Source of the DNA: Candidatus Aenigmatarchaeota archaeon
Lineage (GTDB): Archaea; Aenigmatarchaeota; Aenigmatarchaeia; Aenigmatarchaeales; JACQIB01
Direction of reading: 5' to 3'
Assembly: GCA_046760225.1 (NCBI GenBank)
Contig: JBHIDR010000010.1
Location: 1 to 21,361 of the forward strand
Length of the DNA: 21,361 nucleotides
How positions within the stretch are numbered: the first letter of the stretch is position 1; every line of letters begins with the position of its first letter. The notes below the pieces were generated by a model. That model did not search any database. It was not told where the DNA came from and saw only the letters and a program-made list of their open reading frames with translations. This document shows positions 8,550 through 21,361 of this stretch, piece by piece. The translations under genes and the position numbers were made by a program.

Positions 8550-10334
8550 ATGGTCGAAGAGAAAAAGGAGAAAGATGATTTGGATAAAATCATAGAAGCA
8601 GAAGGAATAGAGAGTAAGGAAGAAAAGGAATCTGAAACAATTGATATATCAAAAGAAGATATGGACTTTGATTATGAAGCGCCAGAAGCATCTGGTCAAG
8701 CGGAGGAGGCGCCACCGGCAGATGAAGCAGTAGAAGAGATGAAAGAAGAACCAGAGGAAAAGGACGAAGCATACAGAGGGCCATCAACAGAAGAAGAGGC
8801 ACTGGAGGAGCTAAAGAAGTGGGAAATTTATGAATCACTTAGTGATGAGGGAAAGGAAAAGTTCGATTTAACAGTAGATTCGATATCAGCGTTGGAAACC
8901 TATAAAATGTTCTTTGATAAGTACAAGGACGAGGAAGACATGGACAAGAAGGTCATAATCTTTTACAAGACGCATGAAAAGGACTATTTTGAAAACATTA
9001 GTCTGGAAGATGTGGAGAACGATTTCGGTACTGTGGCCAAAACTTACAGCAAATATCCGGAAACGTATGATTATTTGTTTGAAGCTGAAGAAGATGAAGA
9101 AGTAGGAAAGGAAGAGGAAGGAGAAGAAGAAGAGGACAGTGAGCTGAAAAAGATCAAGGCTGACCTCAAGAGGCTCGGTTCTGACATGTACAAAGTGGGG
9201 GACGTTAAAGGCAAGGACGGCGAGATGAAAGGCGGTATTAATGTGGACATGGCAAACCTGGACCAGTACGATGGAACCAAGACTGACAGTGATGAAGAAG
9301 GGTTCGATTACCTGCCTATCAAGGTGGAGGTTTTAGAGGAACTTTATGATGTAGGCTTCATCCAGCAGGCAGAAACGCTCCTCCAGGAAGCAGGAGACAA
9401 TAAGAGGATTGTAGGAAATGAGGAAAGAAAAACAGTATCGGATTATATTGGAGAGAATGTAAGCGAGGAAGCTTCCAAGCTGTGGAACAGTCTGCTGAAA
9501 GGCAAGTACGGCAAAGGTCGCGTGATGGGAAATTATCTAGGTTTGATAAGGGGCATAGGAGAAATCAGCGACGAACATTACTTCAAGCATGTAAAGAAGA
9601 ACATACGAAAGGAGATCAGAAAAATCCTTAACAGTGTTGAAGGTAAAAGGGAATTCCATATGATTACTGAGGATGGAAAGACACTGGTGTTCGACTATGA
9701 GAAGGACATAAAGGAGGACATAAACTTCCTCCTGAACATCAAGGAATATGACGAACTGTACAATGATCTGGAGGACAGCATTGCAAAGTACAGGATAATG
9801 ATAAAGGAAACCAAGAAATACAGTCCCTTCTGGTTCGGTAACGAAAGGAAAATGGACGATGCAAAGGAAATAAAGAAGGTCTATGAGAAAATCCTGCCTC
9901 TTGTAGAGAAACTGAAGAAGGGCAAGGCTGAATTCCCTCGCCAGCCGGTTAAGACTATTGTTTACAACACTCATCTGGCAGAAGCACTGACAGGTGCAGG
10001 AATAAACAAGCTGAAGGAACAAATAGAGGACCTGAAGGAAGGACTCGAGAATCCTTCATTGTTCGTGATAAAATATAAGTTTGGAAGGGATGAGGACGGA
10101 GACATCACCTCCATCAAGGCATGCAAGCTCTACATGATTGATGAGAACAAGGAGGAGACCTATGTTGATTTGGTAAAGGAATGTAATGAGTATGCTGAAT
10201 CAAAGGGCGGAAAGAAATGGGGCAAAATCTTCCAGAAAAGATGGGGCATGCTCGAGGACGCAATATATTCTCTTGCCAGGGTCAAAAAGGGCATCAAGGA
10301 TGTAGGCGAAAGACCGCAATACAAGCCAGAGTGA
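8550..10334 (+). CDS. Hypothetical acidic protein (low-complexity E/D-rich N-terminus)
   Basis: 594-aa ORF with RBS; no signal peptide or TM; the C-terminal half resembles ORF 6976. Confidence 0.82.
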   Translation: MVEEKKEKDDLDKIIEAEGIESKEEKESETIDISKEDMDFDYEAPEASGQAEEAPPADEAVEEMKEEPEEKDEAYRGPSTEEEALEELKKWEIYESLSDEGKEKFDLTVDSISALETYKMFFDKYKDEEDMDKKVIIFYKTHEKDYFENISLEDVENDFGTVAKTYSKYPETYDYLFEAEEDEEVGKEEEGEEEEDSELKKIKADLKRLGSDMYKVGDVKGKDGEMKGGINVDMANLDQYDGTKTDSDEEGFDYLPIKVEVLEELYDVGFIQQAETLLQEAGDNKRIVGNEERKTVSDYIGENVSEEASKLWNSLLKGKYGKGRVMGNYLGLIRGIGEISDEHYFKHVKKNIRKEIRKILNSVEGKREFHMITEDGKTLVFDYEKDIKEDINFLLNIKEYDELYNDLEDSIAKYRIMIKETKKYSPFWFGNERKMDDAKEIKKVYEKILPLVEKLKKGKAEFPRQPVKTIVYNTHLAEALTGAGINKLKEQIEDLKEGLENPSLFVIKYKFGRDEDGDITSIKACKLYMIDENKEETYVDLVKECNEYAESKGGKKWGKIFQKRWGMLEDAIYSLARVKKGIKDVGERPQYKPE

Positions 10335-10338
10335 TAAA

Positions 10339-12186
10339 ATGCCGGAAAAAAAGTATACCAAACCTTTGGGCTGGAGGTCCAGGGCAAGAAAGAAAAAGAA
10401 GCAAAGGGATGCTTTGAAAGGGACTGCAATACTTTTTGGAGGTATATTTGGTAGTATTCTTGCAGAAGAGCTACTGAACGACCATCCCATCTATGATTTT
10501 CTTAGTGAAAAATACCCTGGTGTGTTCCCTCCAATAGATGATGAACAGCCCCAACATGTTGACCATGTTGAGGTTACCAACTTCATTGACAATGACCATG
10601 GTAAAGTGGTTGATGCAGACGGAACCCCATACGGGGGTGACGGGATAAAGGAAATTAATATTGATGATCATGGAGAGTTCACAATTGAAAAGCAAGATGG
10701 TACAATTGATAAGGTGTTGGCAAAGGACTTTAATGAATACATGCAAGAAAAGATGGAAAAGGACATGAACATCCAGCCTTATGAGATGAAGAATCCTGGA
10801 GATGATGTTCTTCAGGACGGGGTTTATGCTTATGAATTCAATATTGCAAAGTCGAATATCAAGCCGCTGTTAAAGTACCTCAAGGGCCTTGGTTATGACT
10901 ATATAGAATTTGAGGACGGGAACAGCGGCAAGCTTGTTGTGGAATACAATGTTACGGTCAACGCGTTTAAGGGAGAAATAACAATTGACGGCAAGAAAAT
11001 TGCAGAAAATGTTGTGATAGGCTTTGATGAGAATCTGGACACTTTCAAGCGTTCTATTCTCGGTGAAACGCAGGACTTTCTTGAAGACGGAAAGATAGGT
11101 GACCACAGCTATGCACCGTTCCTTAGCGAGTTTGTCTACAAATGCAAGCTCGACCACACCCAGGACATGCTGGATGATGCAAACCAGCAAATCCAGGATT
11201 TGCAGGATGACATTGCAGAACTTGAAGGCTATCTGAGTGATGCTGATGCTGAAGCAGACGAGTACAGGCCAGGTGACTGGCAGGACCTTGATGACAGGAT
11301 AAGGGACCTCAGGAATGAGCTTACAAATGCAACTGATTACATTGATGAGCTGAAAGGTTACCTTAATGATGCTGATACAGAGGCTGACCAGTACAGGGAA
11401 GGAGACTGGGAAGACCTTGATGACAGGATAAAGGACCTGATAGAAGAGCGGGATGATTTACAGGATGACCTGGATGGTCTTGAGGACTATGTTGACAGCC
11501 TTGACGACAAATATACACAATACTGGCACATCCCCAAGGACCTGTTTGGAATGGTCTATGACAAGCTGATGGCTGATGGAAACCTGAATGAAACAGAAAA
11601 GATATTCCTTGGGTCCCTCTTTATACCTGAGTTCATGGATGATGATCCAGAGAACGACGAACTGAAGGAGATGGTTGTACAGATACAGCCATCAAAGGAG
11701 TATTCCCTCATATACATCAACACAGATATTGGTAGCAACATCACTACCAATCACACAAGAGGGCTTGCAGAAAAGATTGTAAAGACTGCATATGACCTCA
11801 AGGGACAGGATGTTGACCATCATTATGGCTTCACACCAGAATACCTTGAGGGGCTTGACCACGAGAACTTCGTGGCTGCCTGGGAGGTTGCAAAGAAGAA
11901 GCACTGGTACAAGAGGATAAACAGGATGGATGACAACGGAGAGCTCAATGAATCAGGCTCAATGGACTTTTACAACCTCCATGAAAAGGAGGGTGTAACT
12001 GACCTTGATTGGTTTTATGACCAGTGGGAGAACGGAATGATTAAGTATGTTGAGATAGTTGATACAGGAGACGATGAAAAGAACGGTGGTTATGCTGCTG
12101 CATATGACATGAATAACAAGTTGCTGAGAAGGACACCGATAAAGATAGAGAACATAGAAAAGACAAGAGAATACTTCCAAGGGTGA
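10339..12186 (+). CDS. Hypothetical membrane-anchored acidic protein with central coiled-coil repeat
   Basis: 615 aa; basic N-terminus plus hydrophobic segment (TAILFGGIFGSILA); heptad-rich central region with a 43-aa duplication; NxT/S sequons. Confidence 0.82.
   Translation: MPEKKYTKPLGWRSRARKKKKQRDALKGTAILFGGIFGSILAEELLNDHPIYDFLSEKYPGVFPPIDDEQPQHVDHVEVTNFIDNDHGKVVDADGTPYGGDGIKEINIDDHGEFTIEKQDGTIDKVLAKDFNEYMQEKMEKDMNIQPYEMKNPGDDVLQDGVYAYEFNIAKSNIKPLLKYLKGLGYDYIEFEDGNSGKLVVEYNVTVNAFKGEITIDGKKIAENVVIGFDENLDTFKRSILGETQDFLEDGKIGDHSYAPFLSEFVYKCKLDHTQDMLDDANQQIQDLQDDIAELEGYLSDADAEADEYRPGDWQDLDDRIRDLRNELTNATDYIDELKGYLNDADTEADQYREGDWEDLDDRIKDLIEERDDLQDDLDGLEDYVDSLDDKYTQYWHIPKDLFGMVYDKLMADGNLNETEKIFLGSLFIPEFMDDDPENDELKEMVVQIQPSKEYSLIYINTDIGSNITTNHTRGLAEKIVKTAYDLKGQDVDHHYGFTPEYLEGLDHENFVAAWEVAKKKHWYKRINRMDDNGELNESGSMDFYNLHEKEGVTDLDWFYDQWENGMIKYVEIVDTGDDEKNGGYAAAYDMNNKLLRRTPIKIENIEKTREYFQG
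11221..11439 (+). repeat. Intragenic tandem duplication, 129-nt (43-aa) period
   Basis: LEGYLSDADAEADEYRPGDWQDLDDRIRDL (11221-11310) versus LKGYLNDADTEADQYREGDWEDLDDRIKDL (11350-11439). Confidence 0.9.
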
Positions 12187-12190
12187 ATGA

Positions 12191-15100
12191 ATGAAAGGTA
12201 TGAAAGGCTTGCATGAGAAGTTCATCGTTGTTTCAGTAATCATAGCAATGCTAGCAATAGCCATACCTGTTCTTGCAGCTGATACGCACTATGTCAAGAT
12301 CAATGTGTATGACTATGATACTGACAGCAATGTATATTCAGCCTACATGGTTGTCTATGACTCTGATGGCAACATATACAAGGGCCCTGTCTATGGCAAG
12401 AAGATGTGGACATGGTCAATGGCCAATGGACAATATACGCTTGAGGTATACAACAATTCATATGATTTGCACAGGCAGCAGTTCTCACTAAGGAGCGGAA
12501 TGAATGATAATGTCACAATAGAGGCAGGACTTGGTCCTGATGATGTGGCACCTACAACAACATCATCCGGTGATGTTGACTGGACAAACCAGGATGCTGA
12601 CATAACACTCAGCTGCAGCGATTCTGTATCAGACAGCTCAGTTCCCTATGCATCAAGAGGCTCTGGCTGCGACCATACAATGTACAAGATAAACAGCGGT
12701 AACTGGATTACTTATGATTCAGCCTTCACGGTGTCAGCTGAAGGCGATAACACAGTATCATATTACTCGGTTGACAATGCAACAAACCAGGAGCAGACAA
12801 GGACCAATAGCGTAAAAATAGACAAGACAGCTCCGACAACAACGATATCGCTGTCACCTGCAAGCCCGGACGGAGACAACAACTGGTATGTGAGTGATGT
12901 GACTGTAACACTCACATGCGATGATTCAAATGGTGAGCTACAGGTTTCAGGATGCGACTATACCAAGTACAGGATAAACAGTGGTGATTGGCAGACATAT
13001 ACAGATTCGTTCATACTGTCAAATGATGACAGTAATAACACAATTGATTATTATTCGATTGATGTGGCTGGGAACCAGGAGGCAACAAACTCGGAAATTG
13101 ACATAAGCATGGACCAGACAGCTCCTTATTATTCAAACAGGGTAGAGGTTCCTTCTTCACCATACACATACGAGTCAGGAAAGAGTTATAACTTCCTGAT
13201 GGACTGGTATGATGATACCTCAGGACTAAGTGAAATCAACATAACATTTGATGGCGTGGAATATGCTGCAAGTTGGAATGATCCGGACGAGTATATCTTC
13301 ACTATTACTGATTTGCCAGCAGGCGACTACAAGTACAAGTGGAAGGCATGGGACAATGCAGGAAACAGCAATGAAACACAGGAGTACACATACACTGTGG
13401 AGAAGGCAGAGGCCAGCCTTAACCTGACTGCAAGTCCTTCATGGACAGAGACATACGGAACACAGACAACAGTGACATGCGCGCTGCTTGAGGGTGATAG
13501 TGGTGCGACACTGAATCTTACTAGAGATGGTAATGAAGTTGACAGTGACTCAAGCCCTGTGTCGGAAACAGAGACATTCGCTGCTGGAGAATATAGCTAT
13601 GAATGCGAATATGTTGAAACCCAGAACTATACTGATCCCATAACAGAGATAAAAATACTTACAATAAACAAGGCAGACCCGACATCAAACATGCACCTTG
13701 AACTTGATGGCACAGAAGGTAATGTTTCAGTCACGTATCCTGTCAGCACAAATGCAACAGGATGGAATGACTTTGCAGATGCGCAGGACATGACATTCGT
13801 ACTGAAGAGGGACAGCGTAAATGTAAGCAATCCTGACATACTGCAGCTTGCTGCAGGAGAATATGAATATGTTTATCACACTGATGGTGGTGAGAACTAC
13901 ACAGCAGGGGATGTTACATGGTACCTGACCGTGGACAAGGCAACACCAACTGTTTCAGTCAACTTTACAAGCAACCCGATCAGCTATGGTACTGCAGCGG
14001 GGGCGACATGCAGTGTGTCAGATGCACTTGACTACACGCTTTACAGGAACGGAACAGGTGTGGGCCAGTCTGACAACACAGTGCTTGCTGCAGGCGACTA
14101 CAACTATACTTGCGTAGCTGACGGGAACGAGAACTATACTGCTGGCTCTGATGAGCAGATACTCACTGTGAACAAGGCATCAACCAGTACACAGCTGTTC
14201 ATAGACGGCAATCAGGCGAACAATACTGTCACATATGGAACACAGACAAATGCAACTGCAACAACTTCAGCACTTTCAGTCACGCTGTACAGGGACGGAC
14301 AGGCTGTGAGCAACCCAGAAGTAGATACGTTTGCAGCAGGGACCTACAATTACACAGCTGTCAATCCAGGAAACGAGAACTATACTGGAAGTTCAGCTAC
14401 ATGGTGGCTCACTGTCAGCAGGATAAACCCTACTATCCATCTTGCAATAAACGGTGCAGAGGCTGACGGCAACCATGATTACAAAGCAGGCGGACTGAAC
14501 GTTACAGGCTGGACAGAGACAGGTGATGAAAATGCAACTGCAAAGCTCTACCTTGACGGCACAGAAGTGAACAGCCCTTATACTGATTCAGACATGGCTG
14601 CAGGAAACTATGAGATGAATTATACTTATGAACAGTCGCAGAACTACTCTGAGCTCACTGTGACAAGGACGCTCACAATAAACAAGATTGCACCTACCCT
14701 GAAGCTTGAGATAAACGGAGTGGAAGGTGATGTCACAATCGATTACCAGGACCAGCTGAACGTGACAGGGACCATGATAGAAGGTGATTCAGGCGCTACA
14801 ACAGGGCTCTACAGGAACGCTACCCTTGTAAGCAACCCTGACACCACACTGCTCGGCGGAGGCGCTCACAGGTACAACTTCACTTACACTGCTTCAGAGA
14901 ACTACACTGACAGCGAGGTCAGTTATGTTCTTACTGTCAACAAGCTTGACAATCCTGTATGGCTGTTGCTTAATGGAGTGGCAGCTGATGCAAGCCTTAC
15001 TTATGAGGACACCCTGAATGCAACTGCTGGAGCAGAAGCAGGAACAGTTAATATCTACAGGAATGGCACAGATGTCACAAGCGAGAACGGCCAGGACGTG

Positions 15101-17536
15101 ACACTTGCTGCAGGAAGTTACACATACTTTGTGAATGCAACAGGCACTGAGAACTATACAGACAACACAACAGGAGTGAGCTTCAATGTTGACATTGCAA
15201 AGAAGGGCACCACAATGAGGCTGTGGCTGAACGGAACAGAAGGGAACAAGACATACAGCCTGAATGATGTTGCCAACTTCACTGCTGCACTTGATGTTTC
15301 AAAGATAATAACACTGACATATCCTAGTGGAGGAAAGGTCGGCAACACACCGCAGGAGGCAGCTGTGACGCTTGATGAGGAAAAGGACTACAATGTCACT
15401 GCATACTGGAACGGAGATGAGAACTACACAGCAAGCTCAGTCTCTTACTTTGCAAAGGTGCCTGACACAACAGCACCACTGATAACAGTAAACAGCCCGC
15501 TGAACCAGACATACCAGATTGACCAGGTCTGGGCAAATGCAACAATGAATGATGACGGCTCATGGATGAAGGTCGATATTGATGGTACCAATTATACTCT
15601 TGAGAACAGCTCAGGCACATGGAACAAGCTCATAACAGGGCTTGGTGAAGGTGCGCATGCTGCCACATTCTATGGTGCTGATGAGGCAGACAATGAGAAT
15701 ATAAGCGAGACAGTGTACTTCAGCATACCTTGCTTAAGCCACCTGGTGAACACAACTGTTGACGGAGTGTATTATGTAGACAACAAGCTCAACATAGCTG
15801 GCGGAAACAGCACAATAACATGCTCCAATGTGAGCCACTCAACTGTAAGGAACAGTACAATAATCGACTCAACTGTTATATTCAAGGACCTTACAGGCAT
15901 GTATATAGAAGACTCCTTTGTTGACCCGAACTACACAATACCATCTGTTGGTTCAGTAATCAAGGGCAACTCGAACGTTACAATGTCCTCAATAAGGTAC
16001 TCAACAGTGTCAGACCAGTCAAATGTGACATACTCTGAAGTTGTTAACTCCACCGTAAACAACTCAAATGTCTACTGGTCAGACATATGGTACAGTGACA
16101 TCTTGAGGTCTGATATTGAATATTCATGGATAGAGAACTCCAACATAACTGACTCTATTATCAAGAACAGCACTGTGAACAACTCTGATGTGACAGACGC
16201 GTACATAGAAAATGACTTCATGTATAACGGAACACTCGTGTACAACGGCACAAACTACACAACACCCACAAACCTGACAGACATTTACAATCCTGACAGC
16301 AGAGCACCTGTCATAGGCACAATAGTGTTCTCCAACTCGACACCGGCGCCCGGGGACACGGTTAATGTGACAGTTACTGCAACTGACAATGTTGCTGTTG
16401 CCAATGTGACATTCAACAGCACGCTGTATACGCATGCTGCAAACACGAACACATGGACAGGCACATATGCAATACCTTCAGCCAATGGAACATATGAAGT
16501 AGAAGTTGTTGCAACAGACCATACTGGAAACCAGGGCAAGAGGAACATCTCAATAATCGTAAATACAACTGCAGACCCGCAGGTTGAGATTGATGCAAAC
16601 CCGCCTGTGGTTGGAGCAAACACACTTTCAGCAGCTGTGTCTGATGACACAAGTGTTGTATCATGCCAGCTCTACATAAATGACGGTCTTGTTGGTAATA
16701 TGACCGGAACACCAACAAGCAGCGGTACTGTGACATATGCTTATACTTTTGGCTCAACAGGCACTTACACAGCATTTGCAAGCTGCACTGACTCTGCAAA
16801 CAGGACAACAAACGGAACAGCTGTCAACATAACAGTCACAACAGCACCAACAGGACCAGGTGGGCCTGGTGGCCCTGGTGGAAGGGGAGGAACAGTCATA
16901 ATAAGGGCAGGAAAGGTTAGCCTGACAGTGCCTGATTCGATACAAATTCAGCCAGGAGAAACAGGAACATTTGATGTTACTGTTGCAAATACAGGAGAAA
17001 TAACTTTGACAGATGTTTCACTTGATGTAGGAGGACTGCCAATAAGCTGGTTCACAATATCATCCAGCATTGACACGCTCTCTGTAAACAACTCAGTGTC
17101 TTATTCAGTCACAATAAACGTGCCTGCCACTGAACCAATTGGCACAAAGGAGCTTGTGATAAAGGTAAGAACAGCTGAAAGATATGGTGCTGATGCAACA
17201 ACAACCCTGATTGTAGGTAATGTAACTGCCCAGTGTGACTGTCCTGATCCTTCAGGCTGGTCAGACTGTGTTGATGGTGAGCAGACAAGAACAAACTATA
17301 TCTGTGATACCACAACAGGATGGGTATGCGATGAATTCACTGAAACAAGGGCATGTACAGTACAGCCACCCGGACCCGGCGGAATAACAGGTGCTATACT
17401 TGGAGTCACAGAGAACCCAACAGCCCTTGGCGGAATAATAGTCGCAGCCATAGTAATCGGCTCGGTTGCCTGGTCAATGAGGAAGGGCAAGAAAAAAAGA
17501 GGCCGGGCAATTGTAAAGGCCAAGAGCGGGATTTAG
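12191..17536 (+). CDS. Giant cell-surface glycoprotein/adhesin: signal peptide, OmpL47-like and Ig-like beta-sandwich repeats, beta-helix, Cys-rich module, C-terminal TM
   Basis: 1781 aa; Sec-type signal (...AIAIPVLAA); two YxINxGxWxTY...YYS(V/I)DxAxNQE domains; eight AAGxYxY...(E/Q)NY repeats; pentapeptide S-x-(I/V) run; GPGGPGGPGG linker; C-terminal TM with basic tail; many NxT/S sequons. Confidence 0.9.
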   Translation: MKGMKGLHEKFIVVSVIIAMLAIAIPVLAADTHYVKINVYDYDTDSNVYSAYMVVYDSDGNIYKGPVYGKKMWTWSMANGQYTLEVYNNSYDLHRQQFSLRSGMNDNVTIEAGLGPDDVAPTTTSSGDVDWTNQDADITLSCSDSVSDSSVPYASRGSGCDHTMYKINSGNWITYDSAFTVSAEGDNTVSYYSVDNATNQEQTRTNSVKIDKTAPTTTISLSPASPDGDNNWYVSDVTVTLTCDDSNGELQVSGCDYTKYRINSGDWQTYTDSFILSNDDSNNTIDYYSIDVAGNQEATNSEIDISMDQTAPYYSNRVEVPSSPYTYESGKSYNFLMDWYDDTSGLSEINITFDGVEYAASWNDPDEYIFTITDLPAGDYKYKWKAWDNAGNSNETQEYTYTVEKAEASLNLTASPSWTETYGTQTTVTCALLEGDSGATLNLTRDGNEVDSDSSPVSETETFAAGEYSYECEYVETQNYTDPITEIKILTINKADPTSNMHLELDGTEGNVSVTYPVSTNATGWNDFADAQDMTFVLKRDSVNVSNPDILQLAAGEYEYVYHTDGGENYTAGDVTWYLTVDKATPTVSVNFTSNPISYGTAAGATCSVSDALDYTLYRNGTGVGQSDNTVLAAGDYNYTCVADGNENYTAGSDEQILTVNKASTSTQLFIDGNQANNTVTYGTQTNATATTSALSVTLYRDGQAVSNPEVDTFAAGTYNYTAVNPGNENYTGSSATWWLTVSRINPTIHLAINGAEADGNHDYKAGGLNVTGWTETGDENATAKLYLDGTEVNSPYTDSDMAAGNYEMNYTYEQSQNYSELTVTRTLTINKIAPTLKLEINGVEGDVTIDYQDQLNVTGTMIEGDSGATTGLYRNATLVSNPDTTLLGGGAHRYNFTYTASENYTDSEVSYVLTVNKLDNPVWLLLNGVAADASLTYEDTLNATAGAEAGTVNIYRNGTDVTSENGQDVTLAAGSYTYFVNATGTENYTDNTTGVSFNVDIAKKGTTMRLWLNGTEGNKTYSLNDVANFTAALDVSKIITLTYPSGGKVGNTPQEAAVTLDEEKDYNVTAYWNGDENYTASSVSYFAKVPDTTAPLITVNSPLNQTYQIDQVWANATMNDDGSWMKVDIDGTNYTLENSSGTWNKLITGLGEGAHAATFYGADEADNENISETVYFSIPCLSHLVNTTVDGVYYVDNKLNIAGGNSTITCSNVSHSTVRNSTIIDSTVIFKDLTGMYIEDSFVDPNYTIPSVGSVIKGNSNVTMSSIRYSTVSDQSNVTYSEVVNSTVNNSNVYWSDIWYSDILRSDIEYSWIENSNITDSIIKNSTVNNSDVTDAYIENDFMYNGTLVYNGTNYTTPTNLTDIYNPDSRAPVIGTIVFSNSTPAPGDTVNVTVTATDNVAVANVTFNSTLYTHAANTNTWTGTYAIPSANGTYEVEVVATDHTGNQGKRNISIIVNTTADPQVEIDANPPVVGANTLSAAVSDDTSVVSCQLYINDGLVGNMTGTPTSSGTVTYAYTFGSTGTYTAFASCTDSANRTTNGTAVNITVTTAPTGPGGPGGPGGRGGTVIIRAGKVSLTVPDSIQIQPGETGTFDVTVANTGEITLTDVSLDVGGLPISWFTISSSIDTLSVNNSVSYSVTINVPATEPIGTKELVIKVRTAERYGADATTTLIVGNVTAQCDCPDPSGWSDCVDGEQTRTNYICDTTTGWVCDEFTETRACTVQPPGPGGITGAILGVTENPTALGGIIVAAIVIGSVAWSMRKGKKKRGRAIVKAKSGI
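13400..15460 (+). repeat. About eight tandem Ig-like domains of 80-90 aa within the surface protein
   Basis: Recurrent LT(I/V)NK...LYRNG..V....(L/F/M)AAGxYxY......(E/Q)NYT pattern. Boundaries approximate. Confidence 0.85.
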
Positions 17537-18195: not shown

Positions 18196-18225
18196 TTAAT
18201 TAGACAATATCAAATGGGTGGTTTT

Positions 18226-20043
18226 ATGAAATACTCTAAGATTATAAGGAGACCTATAAAGGACCACACTAAAATAAGGGACTACACTAAGGTTAAGAGT
18301 GCTGCTTCTGCTCCCAGAGTGAAGAAGAAAAGGAAGAGAAGGCGTAAAAATGACTACAGGCCTACAAATGAGCTTTATGAGATTCTTAAGGAAAGACCGA
18401 TGACAAGTGAGGAGCTCAGAGCAGCCGGTTACAGGGCATCTGATCTTTATAATCTGCCAGATGTTTCACGCTGGGGCGTATGTCTGGAAAAACCAGTGTT
18501 TTATATTCCAGGCCAAAATGAAGAAAAAACATCTAGTGAAAAGGAGGTGGAGCGTAGAATAATTGAATTCATAAAGACCAAGGATTATGAAGATACTGCA
18601 CTGTCTCTGATAAACAGTGCAAACTATTTTGATAAAGATTTTTTTGCTATGCTGGATTTCCTGCAAAGGTTTGACGTTGGTATAGAGGGGAAAGGGGGAA
18701 AGAGAATAAGATTCTGGGACGAGTTCACATTTTACAAGGTTTTGAGCGGCCTTTATGAGAACAAAAAACTTGAAGAAGTAGAGTGGTTAAAGGAAAAACT
18801 ACCCCTTATTGAAGAATCGAAGATTTCGCCGCTTACTCTTTTGGACTTGCAGCTGGCTGATGCATATGACCTTGTTTCAATAGGCCTATTGAGCCCTGCT
18901 AACACTGAGATGCCCCTGTATCAGTATTCTATTTGCGGGTACCTTGATGTGTGGTTTGAGCGTAACAATGTAAATTGGTCAAAACTGCTTGGAGATGAGA
19001 TTTTTGAGCTTAAACCCGAGCAATTAAAATGGCTGGAAGAACAAGGTCTGGCTGAGCGTTATAAAAAGCATAAGGAGCTCGGCAAACTTACAGTATATGG
19101 AAGAGAGGTCCTTGAATATCTTACCAATTGTACGTGCCTGCCTGGAGAAAACAGGGCCAAACAGATGGAGGAAATAGCAGAGAGATTTGTCAAGAGTGCA
19201 GAAGATGTTGGTAATGATATCAAAGACAAAGGTAAAAGGATATTTTATCAAATGAAAGCAAAGGAAGCATTCATGAAAGCAACAGAACTGCATGCTGATG
19301 AGAACAGAGGTATCAAGACAAAATCCACAAATGACCATATTGTTCCTGAAGAGAAGGAACTCTTTGAGACGTATGAGAGACTAGAAGCAAAGAGAAACGA
19401 GGTTCAAAACCAAATAATTTCTGAAGCACATGATGTTCTCCAAGATCCTCAAAAAACCGGTGAAGCAATAAAGGATTATAAGGATGCTTGTATATTCGCG
19501 CGTGTTTTCAATTATAATGTACCTAGAAATATAAATCGAAATATAAGCTGTAATAGCTTTGTAGAACGATCTACGGAAATCTTGACAGAAGAGTTCTATG
19601 ACTTAAAGAAGAAAATTAGGAGAACCAAGAAGCCAGGAAAAACAATAAAGGAATCTGAAAAACCAAGAAGAATAGTAATGGAAAAGGTAAATTTCTTGAA
19701 TAAGCTGACCCATACCCACAGTGACTTGGAGGAAACTTATATCAGTTATGCGGCTGTCTTTAAAAAATATGAAGAGATAGAAGAAGAAATAGAGAGAAGG
19801 CAACAGAGGGAATTAGAAGAAAAGGAAAGAGAACGTGTCCTGGAGTACATAATGAAACACAAGGATGGTGTTACACCAGCTGCAGCAGCTGGTGAGCTGA
19901 ATATGAAAGAAGAAGATGTTCATCGTTATGTTAAAGAACTGGAGGAAGAAGGCTTCATAGAGATTGATGATATAATAGATTTATGTTATTATCCAATAGA
20001 TAAGCGCTCCCTTACTGAAAAGCTTCTGGACGAAAGGTTGTGA
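18226..20043 (+). CDS. Hypothetical protein with C-terminal winged HTH; N-terminal IRRPIKDH peptide
   Basis: Track start is 18214, but ATG 18226 has a GGTGGT RBS and aligns with the start of ORF 17614. C-terminal RVLEYIMKHKDGVTPAAAAGELNMKEEDVHRYVKELEEEGFI is wHTH-like. Confidence 0.78.
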   Translation: MKYSKIIRRPIKDHTKIRDYTKVKSAASAPRVKKKRKRRRKNDYRPTNELYEILKERPMTSEELRAAGYRASDLYNLPDVSRWGVCLEKPVFYIPGQNEEKTSSEKEVERRIIEFIKTKDYEDTALSLINSANYFDKDFFAMLDFLQRFDVGIEGKGGKRIRFWDEFTFYKVLSGLYENKKLEEVEWLKEKLPLIEESKISPLTLLDLQLADAYDLVSIGLLSPANTEMPLYQYSICGYLDVWFERNNVNWSKLLGDEIFELKPEQLKWLEEQGLAERYKKHKELGKLTVYGREVLEYLTNCTCLPGENRAKQMEEIAERFVKSAEDVGNDIKDKGKRIFYQMKAKEAFMKATELHADENRGIKTKSTNDHIVPEEKELFETYERLEAKRNEVQNQIISEAHDVLQDPQKTGEAIKDYKDACIFARVFNYNVPRNINRNISCNSFVERSTEILTEEFYDLKKKIRRTKKPGKTIKESEKPRRIVMEKVNFLNKLTHTHSDLEETYISYAAVFKKYEEIEEEIERRQQRELEEKERERVLEYIMKHKDGVTPAAAAGELNMKEEDVHRYVKELEEEGFIEIDDIIDLCYYPIDKRSLTEKLLDERL

Positions 20044-20728
20044 TTAAAATTCTTCCAGCTTTTTCTGCTTCTTCTTGCCCTTTAGCATCTCTACTGTTAC
20101 CCAGCTGTGACGGACATAATGCGAGAAGTCTGGATTGTCAATAGCAGCCTTGACAAAGGCTATTGTGCGCTCGTCATGGGGATAGCCCACTCCGAGGTCG
20201 AACTTCACCTTCTTCTTTATCTTCCCTATCTCAGCATCTCTTTCCACCTTTGCTATTATTGATGCTGCTGACACAATCGGGTATCTCTCATCTGCCTTGT
20301 TCTCTGCTATTATTTCCGTGTGGTTCCTTGCCAGATTGAGAAGAATGTTCCTGAACTTTTCGGTTGACACCTGGGGTGCATCCACAATAGCCTTGTCTGC
20401 ACTAGCTTCCTTTATTATCCTTGCCATTGCTTCAGCTTCTATAATATTGAGGTTCTTTTTCTGGCGCAAGGTGTCAATGTTCCTTGCAGAAATCTTTACT
20501 ATATTATAACCTTTGAGGAGCTTCTTGAGCTCTGCATACATAAGCTCCCTTTTCTTTGGCGTCAGAAGTTTGCTGTCCTTGAGGCCAAGTGGAGCAAGCT
20601 TTTTCAGATTCCTTTCCTCTATGATAGCACCTGCTATTACTAGGGGGCCGACGACCGAACCTCTTACGGTAAGTCTAATATCAATTAGACTTATTTCCGC
20701 TTTCGTCAATCCCTAGGATTAGTGTCAC
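20044..20728 (-). CDS. rnhB: Ribonuclease HII, interrupted by a 31-nt putative intron (exon 1 20728-20695, exon 2 20663-20044; 217 aa spliced)
   Basis: Exon 1 from GTG 20728 encodes MTLILGIDESG. Exon 2 continues (R)GSVVGPLVIAG...LKDSKLL...VDA...ENKADERYPIVSAASIIAKVERD...GYPHD. GAGGTGA RBS 7 nt before the GTG; GTGA overlap with the upstream stop. Confidence 0.93.
20664..20694 (-). other. Putative bulge-helix-bulge/loop (tRNA-splicing-endonuclease type) mRNA intron, 31 nt
   Basis: Central helix GCGG/CCGU, 3-nt AAA bulge, perfect 10-bp stem UAAGUCUAAU/AUUAGACUUA with UGAU loop. Removal restores the reading frame and the GIDESGRG motif. Confidence 0.85.
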
Positions 20729-21361
20729 AATACATTCACCTCTTTATTTGTTGGTATTTTGTACCATAAATAATCCTTTCTTCTAACCAAACCTAATCTT
20801 TCTAATTCTTTTAATCTTCTATATGAAGATTTTGGACATACACCAAGTATATCTGAAATATCTTTTGTAGTTCGTGGTTTTCTTAATATTTTCATATATC
20901 TTTGTTTCACGCCTGAAATAAGAATTACATCAGCATCTTTCTGTACCCAGAAGTCTTTACTATAAACCCTAAAGTTTGATATCTTCCCTTCTTTCTTTAA
21001 TTCCGATAATGCTTTTTGAATCCTATTACGACCTCTATTGAATAAGGAAGCTAACTCTGTACTTGTTTTGGGGCTTGATAAATGAGATATTATATTGTTT
21101 TTGATAAAGTTATGGGAATAGTGCAATTCTTTGAATTCATTGTACATTCTCCAAAATTTCTTTTTCTTTTCTGGATGCAAGTCTGCAATTCTTATATTTG
21201 CTAACTTTTCCCAGTTGTATCTACCTGTTATCACGTATGATCTTTCACTTTTCTTAAATTTGAATGATATAGAAAAATGCTCAAGGATATTATCTATAAG
21301 TCTCATTCTCTGTTTTTGCGATATTCTTGCCCCAGCTTTTCCTTGCACAGTTTTTTGATTA
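20725..21361 (-). CDS. C-terminal part of a probable LAGLIDADG-like endonuclease-fold protein with two winged-HTH domains; 5' end outside the window
   Basis: Frame is open to the window edge (NQKTVQGKAG...). RISQ...LIDNILEHFSI...YVITGRYNWEKLA...LHPEKKKKF resembles the second half of a LAGLIDADG domain; two wHTH units follow (KTSTELASLF...LSELKKEGKI; RTTKDISDILGV...LKELERLGLV). About 30% GC in two hand-counted 60-nt lines. The LAGLIDADG motif itself is not visible. Confidence 0.55.
   Translation of the reverse strand, partial: NQKTVQGKAGARISQKQRMRLIDNILEHFSISFKFKKSERSYVITGRYNWEKLANIRIADLHPEKKKKFWRMYNEFKELHYSHNFIKNNIISHLSSPKTSTELASLFNRGRNRIQKALSELKKEGKISNFRVYSKDFWVQKDADVILISGVKQRYMKILRKPRTTKDISDILGVCPKSSYRRLKELERLGLVRRKDYLWYKIPTNKEVNVL
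20736..20742 (-). promoter_or_regulatory. Shine-Dalgarno GAGGTGA for the rnhB GTG start
   Basis: Strong match to the archaeal anti-SD, 7 nt upstream of GTG 20728. Confidence 0.75.

Follow-up and report, generated by a model that had tools for sequence, protein, structure and literature searches.

A candidate selfish cassette at archaeal rnhB: a LAGLIDADG and winged-helix endonuclease gene beside a predicted bulge-helix-bulge mini-intron

At one end of the 21,361-nucleotide (nt) stretch of Candidatus Aenigmatarchaeota DNA analysed here (contig JBHIDR010000010.1; the whole stretch is called the window), an AT-rich open reading frame (ORF) runs into the start of rnhB, the gene for ribonuclease HII (RNase HII), shortly before an insert that splits the active-site codons of that gene. 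The locus raises the question of what such an ORF does there, and whether it has anything to do with the insert. A first-pass annotation had suggested a homing endonuclease coupled to an intron-bearing gene, with a domesticated DNA-binding regulator as the alternative. From its sequence and that of its relatives, the window ORF is predicted to be the C-terminal 211 residues of a single-chain I-DmoI-like LAGLIDADG endonuclease of ~340 residues with two extra winged-helix domains, and the insert is a predicted bulge-helix-bulge (BHB) intron, with splicing likewise predicted. We consider it probable, though we hold the view with limited assurance, that the endonuclease gene, a replacement exon 1 and an intron conferring immunity together form a selfish cassette.

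The locus in the window and across archaea

The features of the locus, from the endonuclease gene through rnhB, are the following.

20725..21361, minus strand: 3′ two-thirds of the endonuclease gene (211 codons plus TGA); from the ORF listing, homologues, a GC content of 0.303 and alignment A1 (38 full-length family members plus the window fragment)
21130..21360, minus strand: rest of the second LAGLIDADG half-domain (β-saddle and following helices), bounds approximate; from alignment to family member P0012
20959..21075, minus strand: first winged helix-turn-helix (wHTH) domain, fragment residues ~96-134; from weak Pfam matches, a Sta1-family match and the AlphaFold (AF2) model of P0012
20770..20898, minus strand: second wHTH domain, fragment residues ~155-197; from Pfam matches to HTH_Crp_2 (3.5e-8) and TrmB (8e-8)
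20736..20742, minus strand: Shine-Dalgarno-like GAGGTGA for rnhB exon 1, within the last endonuclease codons and 7 nt before the GTG
20725..20728, minus strand: GTGA overlap of the rnhB start GTG (20728-20726) with the endonuclease stop TGA (20727-20725); from the sequence
20695..20728, minus strand: rnhB exon 1, GTG plus 10 codons plus 1 nt, ending in G-I-D-E-S-G and the first base of an Arg codon; from the sequence and the BHB cut rule
20664..20694, minus strand: predicted BHB mini-intron, 31 nt, holding an in-frame TGA at 20683-20681; from RNA folding and a geometry scan
20044..20663, minus strand: rnhB exon 2, from the last two Arg-codon bases (R-G-S-V-V-G-P...) through the stop; RNase_HII (7.8e-39, Pfam) and TIGR00729 (4.6e-52)

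The endonuclease ORF (21360..20728) is open at the end of the window, which is also the end of the contig; this copy is without its first ~130 codons, and the contig ends just past the second LAGLIDADG motif. As read from the DNA, the candidate cassette begins with the endonuclease gene, which is followed in order by a 4-nt overlap (NTGA) that has a ribosome-binding site (RBS) built in, an exon 1 of ~11 codons, a BHB intron of ~30 nt and exon 2. The first-pass annotation had already described the GTGA overlap, the RBS inside the ORF, the distance of about 30 nt to the intron (30 nt by count) and the two wHTH domains, and all of these were borne out. Its estimate of ~30% GC for the ORF also agrees with the measured value; rnhB is indeed richer in GC, but the ~50% given for it was somewhat high, exon 2 having 0.448 and the whole window 0.434. 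The overlap of stop and start suggests that the endonuclease gene and rnhB are translationally coupled.

The same arrangement was found in many other genomes. A scan of 185,579 species genomes, seeded with both LAGLIDADG motifs as patterns, gave 93 confirmed relatives, and 80 of these 93 were analysed as loci. They span at least eight archaeal phyla, the hosts being labelled Woese-, Pace-, Nano-, Aenigmat-, Micr- and Iainarchaeota, Nanohaloarchaea, Altiarchaeota and Thaumarchaeota, with some bins doubtfully labelled. With window exon 2 as tblastn query, rnhB was located directly downstream on the same strand, 40-120 nt past the endonuclease match, in 79 of the 80 loci, and the matches begin at exon 2 residues 1-3. 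In the sole miss (L061) the contig breaks off 59 nt past the endonuclease match, and linkage is therefore 79 of 79 testable loci, a recurrence that cannot be put down to chance. The two genes are separated by a mini exon 1 consisting of a start codon, one to six codons and then G-(I/V/L)-D-(E/D)-(A/S)-G. The NTGA overlap of the endonuclease stop with the exon 1 start is present in 39 of 73 evaluable loci, window included, and (A/G)AGGTGA stands just before exon 1 in many of the related loci.

The association with an intron is less complete than that with rnhB. Inserts at the Arg codon after D-E-x-G are present in 66 of the 79 loci, and rnhB is uninterrupted in the other 13 (L005, L006, L007, L010, L012, L013, L022, L023, L030, L048, L052, L062 and L074).

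We also noticed five loci (L055, L067, L068, L071 and L075; proteins P0056, P0058, P0064, P0076 and P0088) in which the endonuclease frame lacks a separate stop, continues through exon 1 and ends within the intron. From the reading frames, spliced transcripts of these loci would encode an in-frame fusion of the endonuclease with RNase HII, unless translation began anew at the exon 1 start codon.

The insert in rnhB

Read without splicing, the GTG frame of the window gives ..L-G-I-D-E-S-G, then N-K-S-N, and then reaches the TGA within the insert. The long frame of RNase HII restarts at R-G-S-V-V-G-P, in a different frame from exon 1, and from this change of frame it follows that the 31-nt insert splits the D-E-x-G-R-G active-site codons. 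The predicted RNA structure of the insert and its borders has a central helix of GCGG (20700-20697) with CCGU (20669-20666), bulges AAA (20696-20694) and AAG (20665-20663), and an inner hairpin of 10 base pairs (bp) formed by 20693-20684 with 20679-20670 around a loop at 20683-20680. The fold has an energy of -28.4 kcal/mol (z -3.59) with none of 200 shuffled sequences as stable, and removal of the intron in silico restores G-I-D-E-S-G-R-G. The polarity of the BHB cuts is reasoned here from the tRNA 37/38 case.

The inserts of the other loci were examined together with that of the window by a blind scan for BHB geometry, which required four central base pairs, a bulge of 3 nt on the 3′ side of this helix in each strand and, next to it, an inner helix no shorter than 3 bp. 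In 57 of the 67 inserts (66 loci plus the window), a strict BHB with standard cuts, that is, after the second bulge nucleotide, restores G-x-D-E-x-G-R-G...G, and this frame-restoring BHB is the top-ranked blind candidate in 40 of the 67. The remaining inserts comprise five with three of the four central pairs and five without a resolved BHB, among the latter two longer ones of ~57 nt (L036) and 73 nt (L044). The strict-case introns are 21-43 nt long, with a median of 31 (n = 57). Two variable central pairs, with five and six pair types, respectively, link a synonymous exon 1 codon position to an intron base; when the 3′ strands were permuted among loci, a mean of 11.6 and a maximum of 21 of the 57 helices were fully paired. 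The inner helix h′ is present (10 bp in the window, median 6 bp across loci), while the outer exon-exon helix h, in the window as in most loci, is absent or amounts to 1 bp adjoining the motif, which makes this a relaxed form of BHB. The relaxed form needs a splicing endonuclease of broad specificity.

Ribosomal frameshifting, translational bypass and a pseudogene were considered as explanations of the insert and all rejected, since the inserts come in all length classes, including multiples of three with in-frame stops, the BHB pairs covary, and exon 1 is conserved across phyla. A search of Rfam gave nothing above chance.

The position of the intron differs by 1-3 nt between lineages, being at offset 19 in seven loci (window included), at offset 20 in 52 and at offset 22 in three. 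In the spliced sequences the Arg codon at the intron site is AGA, with 60-62 of 62 sequences agreeing at each of its three positions; it is AGA in only 3 of 12 uninterrupted loci, the other nine using CGN, AAG or AGG. This codon difference gives a hint of the target site and is weakly suggestive of another route to immunity in the uninterrupted loci, ten of which are in one clade.

Endonuclease fold, insertion footprints and competing explanations

The LAGLIDADG-like segment that the first-pass annotation had seen was not borne out, as the window itself holds no LAGLIDADG motif. Neither Pfam nor NCBIfam found a LAGLIDADG domain in the 211-residue fragment, for which only wHTH matches were returned, yet the guess at the family was right, and the motifs are found in full-length relatives. 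The relatives of the window ORF form 115 representative clusters (search threshold E up to 1e-3), are ~340 residues long and are 45-55% identical to the fragment. Alignment A1 contains two near-invariant motifs, G-L-W-L-A-E-G-D near the N-terminus and L-R-G-F-F-A-G-E-G-N near residue 120. The window starts at the N of the second motif, and the first, judging by the full-length relatives, would be ~110 residues further upstream, for which reason no genuine LAGLIDADG motif is visible in the window. Pfam LAGLIDADG_3 matches 35 of the 39 aligned members, with a best E of 3.4e-10, and a TrmB-type wHTH matches 30 of the 39.

P0012 was modelled with AF2 on the basis of A1, with a pLDDT of 93.7 and a pTM of 0.67. 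The model contains the double-domain α-β-β-α-β-β-α fold with a DNA-binding β-saddle, and in a Foldseek search of the PDB it is matched best by I-DmoI, in many entries (E 2.2e-6, TM on target 0.62-0.68), followed by E-DreI, WhiA (3hyi, E 6e-5), the bI3 maturase (2ab5, 7.9e-5), PI-SceI and I-Tsp061I (1.5e-3). A sequence profile search of the PDB with A1 returned wHTH proteins only, and the nuclease fold is thus visible solely by structure. In the model, E17 and E126 are the last residues of the two LAGLIDADG helices, and each is conserved in at least 90% of A1. These two residues are probably equivalent to D21 and E117 of I-DmoI, an equivalence inferred by position rather than by residue-level superposition. 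Of the loci that could be aligned, 77 of 78 retain the first Glu and 79 of 80 the second, counts that come from loci ascertained by these very motifs. Fold and catalytic residues of full-length relatives were what the first-pass annotation expected to be telling, and both came out in favour of an endonuclease: the model points to a family with an I-DmoI-like single-chain LAGLIDADG fold, residues at the catalytic positions and two C-terminal winged helices.

In P0012, LAGLIDADG_3 covers residues 117-184 by Pfam and the nuclease domain of the AF2 model ends near residue 204, which is the basis for the approximate bounds of the half-domain in the window. The Pfam matches of the first wHTH domain are weak (GntR 2.1e-3 and HTH_11 2.7e-3, both under the curated cut-offs); this domain is also supported by a Sta1-family match and by a wHTH in the model. 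The second gives profile matches in the PDB to PH1932 and to ZitR-type wHTH proteins. An endonuclease borne by an intein was rejected: translation of the ORF ends at a stop codon of its own, and it is by predicted removal of the intron from the RNA that the host frame would be re-established. The 39 members matched 41 Pfam families, and the 25 of these that were listed include neither an intein nor a Hint family. In the ESM Atlas, several other archaeal clusters join LAGLIDADG_3 to ArsR/HTH_5, for example, a cluster of 370 residues that is commonest in Hadarchaeota.

In 7 of 75 loci, the 160 nt that precede the endonuclease gene encode a peptide resembling the rnhB N-terminus, where 0.1 would be expected from the control rate of two matches in 267,621 nt (P 1.6e-11). 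A search for a second exon 1 copy at the nucleotide level was significant only in L071. There a TATA-like box precedes the relic, which reads M-T-T-I-L-G-I-D-E and continues in frame into the endonuclease; the relic also has a 25-nt repeat in common with the downstream exon 1. In L046 the relic runs through D-E-A-G and one base of the Arg codon, to ~2 nt from the intron site. These relics imply that the endonuclease gene entered rnhB at the intron site or no more than a few nt away from it, and that the functional exon 1 downstream of it is a second copy. Behind the exon 1 relic of L046 (1630-1700) we also observed TGGC..GCCA with A-rich triplets behind each half, which may be the remnant of a second, degenerate BHB intron, or chance.

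The composition of the gene and the comparison of trees add to this picture. The endonuclease gene is richer in AT than rnhB in 74 of 74 loci and richer than its flanks in 72 of 74. Among the loci, the closest relatives of the window in rnhB are L071 and L075 (60-62% identity), and their endonucleases are the most distant from that of the window (30-31%, ranks 78 and 80 of 80), while L033 and L076 are close to the window in both genes. The endonuclease tree groups L055, L067, L071 and L075 with an SH-like support of 99, a clade that the rnhB data reject (delta lnL 292, p-AU 0.002). Together, the exon 1 relics, the AT-richness and the tree conflict are what we read from the sequences as the footprints of a mobile element. 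Distribution of the intron is patchy as far as homologues indicate. The 120 rnhB homologues closest to the window share 56-81% identity with it; 95 of them, the four nearest (74-81%) among these, show no interruption, eight seem to be interrupted and another 17 have short N-termini.

The mechanism that we propose for the selfish cassette would be as follows. The endonuclease would recognise uninterrupted DNA for G-I-D-E-A/S-G-R-G, ~25 nt into rnhB, and cut alleles without the cassette, and repair of the break would copy the cassette in. The rnhB 5′ end carried by the cassette would keep the host gene functional, and rnhB would then be co-transcribed with the endonuclease gene and translationally coupled to it. 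The cassette would take over the expression signals of rnhB. The recognition sequence would otherwise be regenerated by the exon 1 copy; split by the mini-intron, it would give the cassette self-immunity at the DNA level, and the host tRNA-splicing endonuclease and ligase would excise the intron from the mRNA.

Several observations weigh against this reading. Thirteen of the 79 loci pair an uninterrupted rnhB with an apparently intact endonuclease gene, from which it follows that the intron is not strictly needed, contrary to a simple immunity model. Nor are the endonucleases of these intron-less loci dead by their residues, the first catalytic Glu being kept in 13 of 13 and the second in 12 of 13 (the exception is L062). 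The pairwise identities of endonuclease and rnhB correlate (Pearson 0.51; 0 of 999 Mantel permutations as high; 64 intact loci), and the endonuclease is slightly the more conserved of the two (median identity 0.44 vs 0.40), which fits a domesticated function too. No near-identical endonucleases with divergent rnhB were seen among the pairs, the largest excess being 0.22. The endonuclease tree largely tracks taxon labels, Thaumarchaeota and Nanohaloarchaea each being monophyletic, which indicates a mostly vertical history with long residence as the rule. The reciprocal AU test on the endonuclease data was borderline (p 0.057), both of the AU-tested groups were picked after the trees had been seen, and motif conservation among the loci is partly ascertained by the motif-seeded retrieval. 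What the first-pass annotation had proposed, a homing endonuclease coupled to the intron-bearing gene, is favoured by family, linkage and relics near the intron site, and the 13 uninterrupted loci stand against its immunity in the simple form.

Some of these observations would suit a domesticated DNA-binding protein, and this is the best of the alternatives, although we think it unlikely. It would be a former homing endonuclease kept, like WhiA, as a regulator or partner of rnhB, using its saddle and both wHTH domains to bind the operon or another site and no longer promoting mobility. Two wHTH domains of regulator type, the WhiA match in Foldseek together with WhiA clusters in a structure search of the Atlas (TM 0.49-0.56), a conservation equal to or above that of rnhB with mostly joint divergence, a tree that follows taxonomy, the conserved translational coupling and the 13 loci with an intact gene beside uninterrupted rnhB speak for it. 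WhiA has lost its catalytic residues; here both Glu are conserved at 90% or more in A1, a sample independent of the motifs, and this retention weakens the regulator suggested in the first-pass annotation, which the 13 intact intron-less loci nonetheless keep alive. The mobile-element footprints are against it as well, and so is the patchiness among rnhB homologues (95 of 120 uninterrupted), a comparison that concerns the intron site only.

Less plausible is an element that invaded as proposed for the cassette and was then stranded, with an endonuclease now inactive on any available target and an ORF that is kept mainly because rnhB depends on its promoter and on the coupling, so that a lost or truncated ORF would impair rnhB expression. 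The NTGA overlap and the Shine-Dalgarno site within the endonuclease gene in most loci are in line with such dependence, and most loci have kept no distinct rnhB-like 5′ region ahead of the endonuclease gene. There are also broken copies, with stops or frame breaks (L002, L068, L077, L078, L080, L070 and L047), although most copies are intact. Selection for an open frame alone would not keep a median identity of 44% or near-invariant motif residues across phyla, and the replacement of one endonuclease lineage by another within a single rnhB clade implies activity in the not too distant past.

It is very improbable that the two genes are coincidental neighbours, that is, that an active endonuclease has some other target, such as intergenic or promoter DNA upstream of rnhB, and that the BHB intron is independent of it. 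The 13 intron-less loci and the 1-3 nt variation in intron position would suit this account, but the relics end at D-E(-A-G), placing the insertion point of the endonuclease gene and the intron site within the same ~10 bp, and introns are present in 66 of 79 (84%) endonuclease loci against at most 25 of the 120 closest rnhB homologues. Scarcely credible, finally, is a helper at the RNA level that promotes or regulates BHB splicing of rnhB, whether as a LAGLIDADG maturase or through wHTH binding of the pre-mRNA: the bI3 maturase match, a Foldseek match to SelB winged helices bound to SECIS RNA and the endonuclease stop within the intron of some loci can be cited for it, but structural matches of this kind are to be expected of the fold in general, the 13 intron-less loci have an intact copy of the protein, and the splicing endonuclease and ligase of the host suffice for BHB introns.

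Should the selfish-cassette reading be right in its bolder form, that of collaborative homing (considered below), BHB introns in archaeal mRNAs could arise as immunity devices of homing endonucleases, and the cassette would be hard to lose owing to the coupling of rnhB expression to it, a route by which a selfish gene might capture the expression signals of a housekeeping gene. Where the endonuclease stop is in the intron, unspliced mRNA would yield free endonuclease and spliced mRNA a fusion of endonuclease and RNase HII. The cassette would also open to direct test the long-standing question of how a free-standing endonuclease and an intron without an ORF arrive at a common target. On the practical side, standard gene callers miss the rnhB intron and report rnhB without its D-E catalytic residues, and the architecture of a nuclease with two winged helices is new for LAGLIDADG proteins and would have a predictable natural target of ~25 bp, which may interest enzyme engineers.

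As for the surroundings, ribosomal protein L10e and DUF1512 are encoded elsewhere in the window, which indicates a chromosomal setting, and the closest named rnhB proteins are from Aenigmatarchaeota (75% identity). In the database searched, the window endonuclease protein is on one contig (21,361 nt) and the identical rnhB ORF on three, the longest of 21,707 nt; assemblies may break inside the endonuclease gene owing to its low GC content or to polymorphism of the cassette. An ORF of 609 residues at 18214-20043 (plus strand) converges on rnhB, its last base at 20043 abutting the last base of the rnhB stop codon at 20044, and a C-terminal wHTH (HTH_24, 8e-5) is its only family match. Further away, at 8550-17536 (plus strand), three ORFs of 594, 615 and 1781 residues follow in a row, with a weak NEW3 match in the largest as the sole Pfam match; they may be surface proteins of a DPANN-type cell.

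Comparison with known systems

The nearest relatives in fold are I-DmoI and I-Tsp061I, with which the rnhB-linked family has in common the fold itself, two LAGLIDADG helices each ending in an acidic residue, an archaeal host and an association with BHB introns. P0012 is only 14-16% identical to I-DmoI in sequence. The rnhB-linked gene differs from I-DmoI in that it is free-standing, upstream of the 5′ exon of its host gene and not inside the intron, its protein carries the two extra C-terminal wHTH domains, and its host gene encodes a protein rather than rRNA. WhiA is similar in having a LAGLIDADG double domain followed by one or more DNA-binding HTH domains; in contrast to WhiA, the rnhB-linked family keeps the acidic residues that end both helices, and Pfam assigns it to LAGLIDADG_3 and not to the WhiA models.

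For the intron, the nearest precedent is cbf5 of Crenarchaeota, also a case of a short BHB-type intron in an archaeal protein-coding gene. That intron is described as 16-44 bp long, too short for a nuclease and lost in specific lineages, and cbf5 is given as the only archaeal protein gene with confirmed BHB splicing; the portion of that account available to us makes no mention of an adjacent endonuclease gene (PMC2738675). The present case differs in the gene, rnhB, in the phyla, which are DPANN and Thaumarchaeota, in the position of the intron at an active-site motif and in the adjacent endonuclease gene. With splicing predicted, rnhB would join cbf5 as the second archaeal protein-coding gene family to contain a BHB intron, one found across DPANN phyla and in Thaumarchaeota, and a BHB intron in an archaeal protein gene would be linked to a homing endonuclease for the first time. 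In the literature searched, there was no description of an rnhB intron or of an archaeal LAGLIDADG gene beside RNase HII.

The genetic layout, finally, is reminiscent of collaborative homing, phage examples of which are cyanophage psbA and T4 mobE/nrdB. As such systems are described, a free-standing endonuclease gene adjoins a gene with an ORF-less intron at a conserved site, and the target of the endonuclease is the insertion site (PMC3984707). A free-standing endonuclease gene likewise stands beside rnhB with its ORF-less intron, and a target at the intron site is proposed. A bolder form of our reading, namely that this is the first archaeal case of collaborative homing, in which a LAGLIDADG-wHTH endonuclease displaces the promoter and first codons of rnhB and brings its own exon 1, with a BHB intron serving purely for immunity, is possible but in our view doubtful as a whole. 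In contrast to the phage systems, the rnhB intron is an archaeal BHB intron of 21-43 nt with predicted removal by host enzymes and is no self-splicing ribozyme, the hosts are cellular archaea, and the cassette adds a replacement 5′ exon and translational coupling to the host gene.

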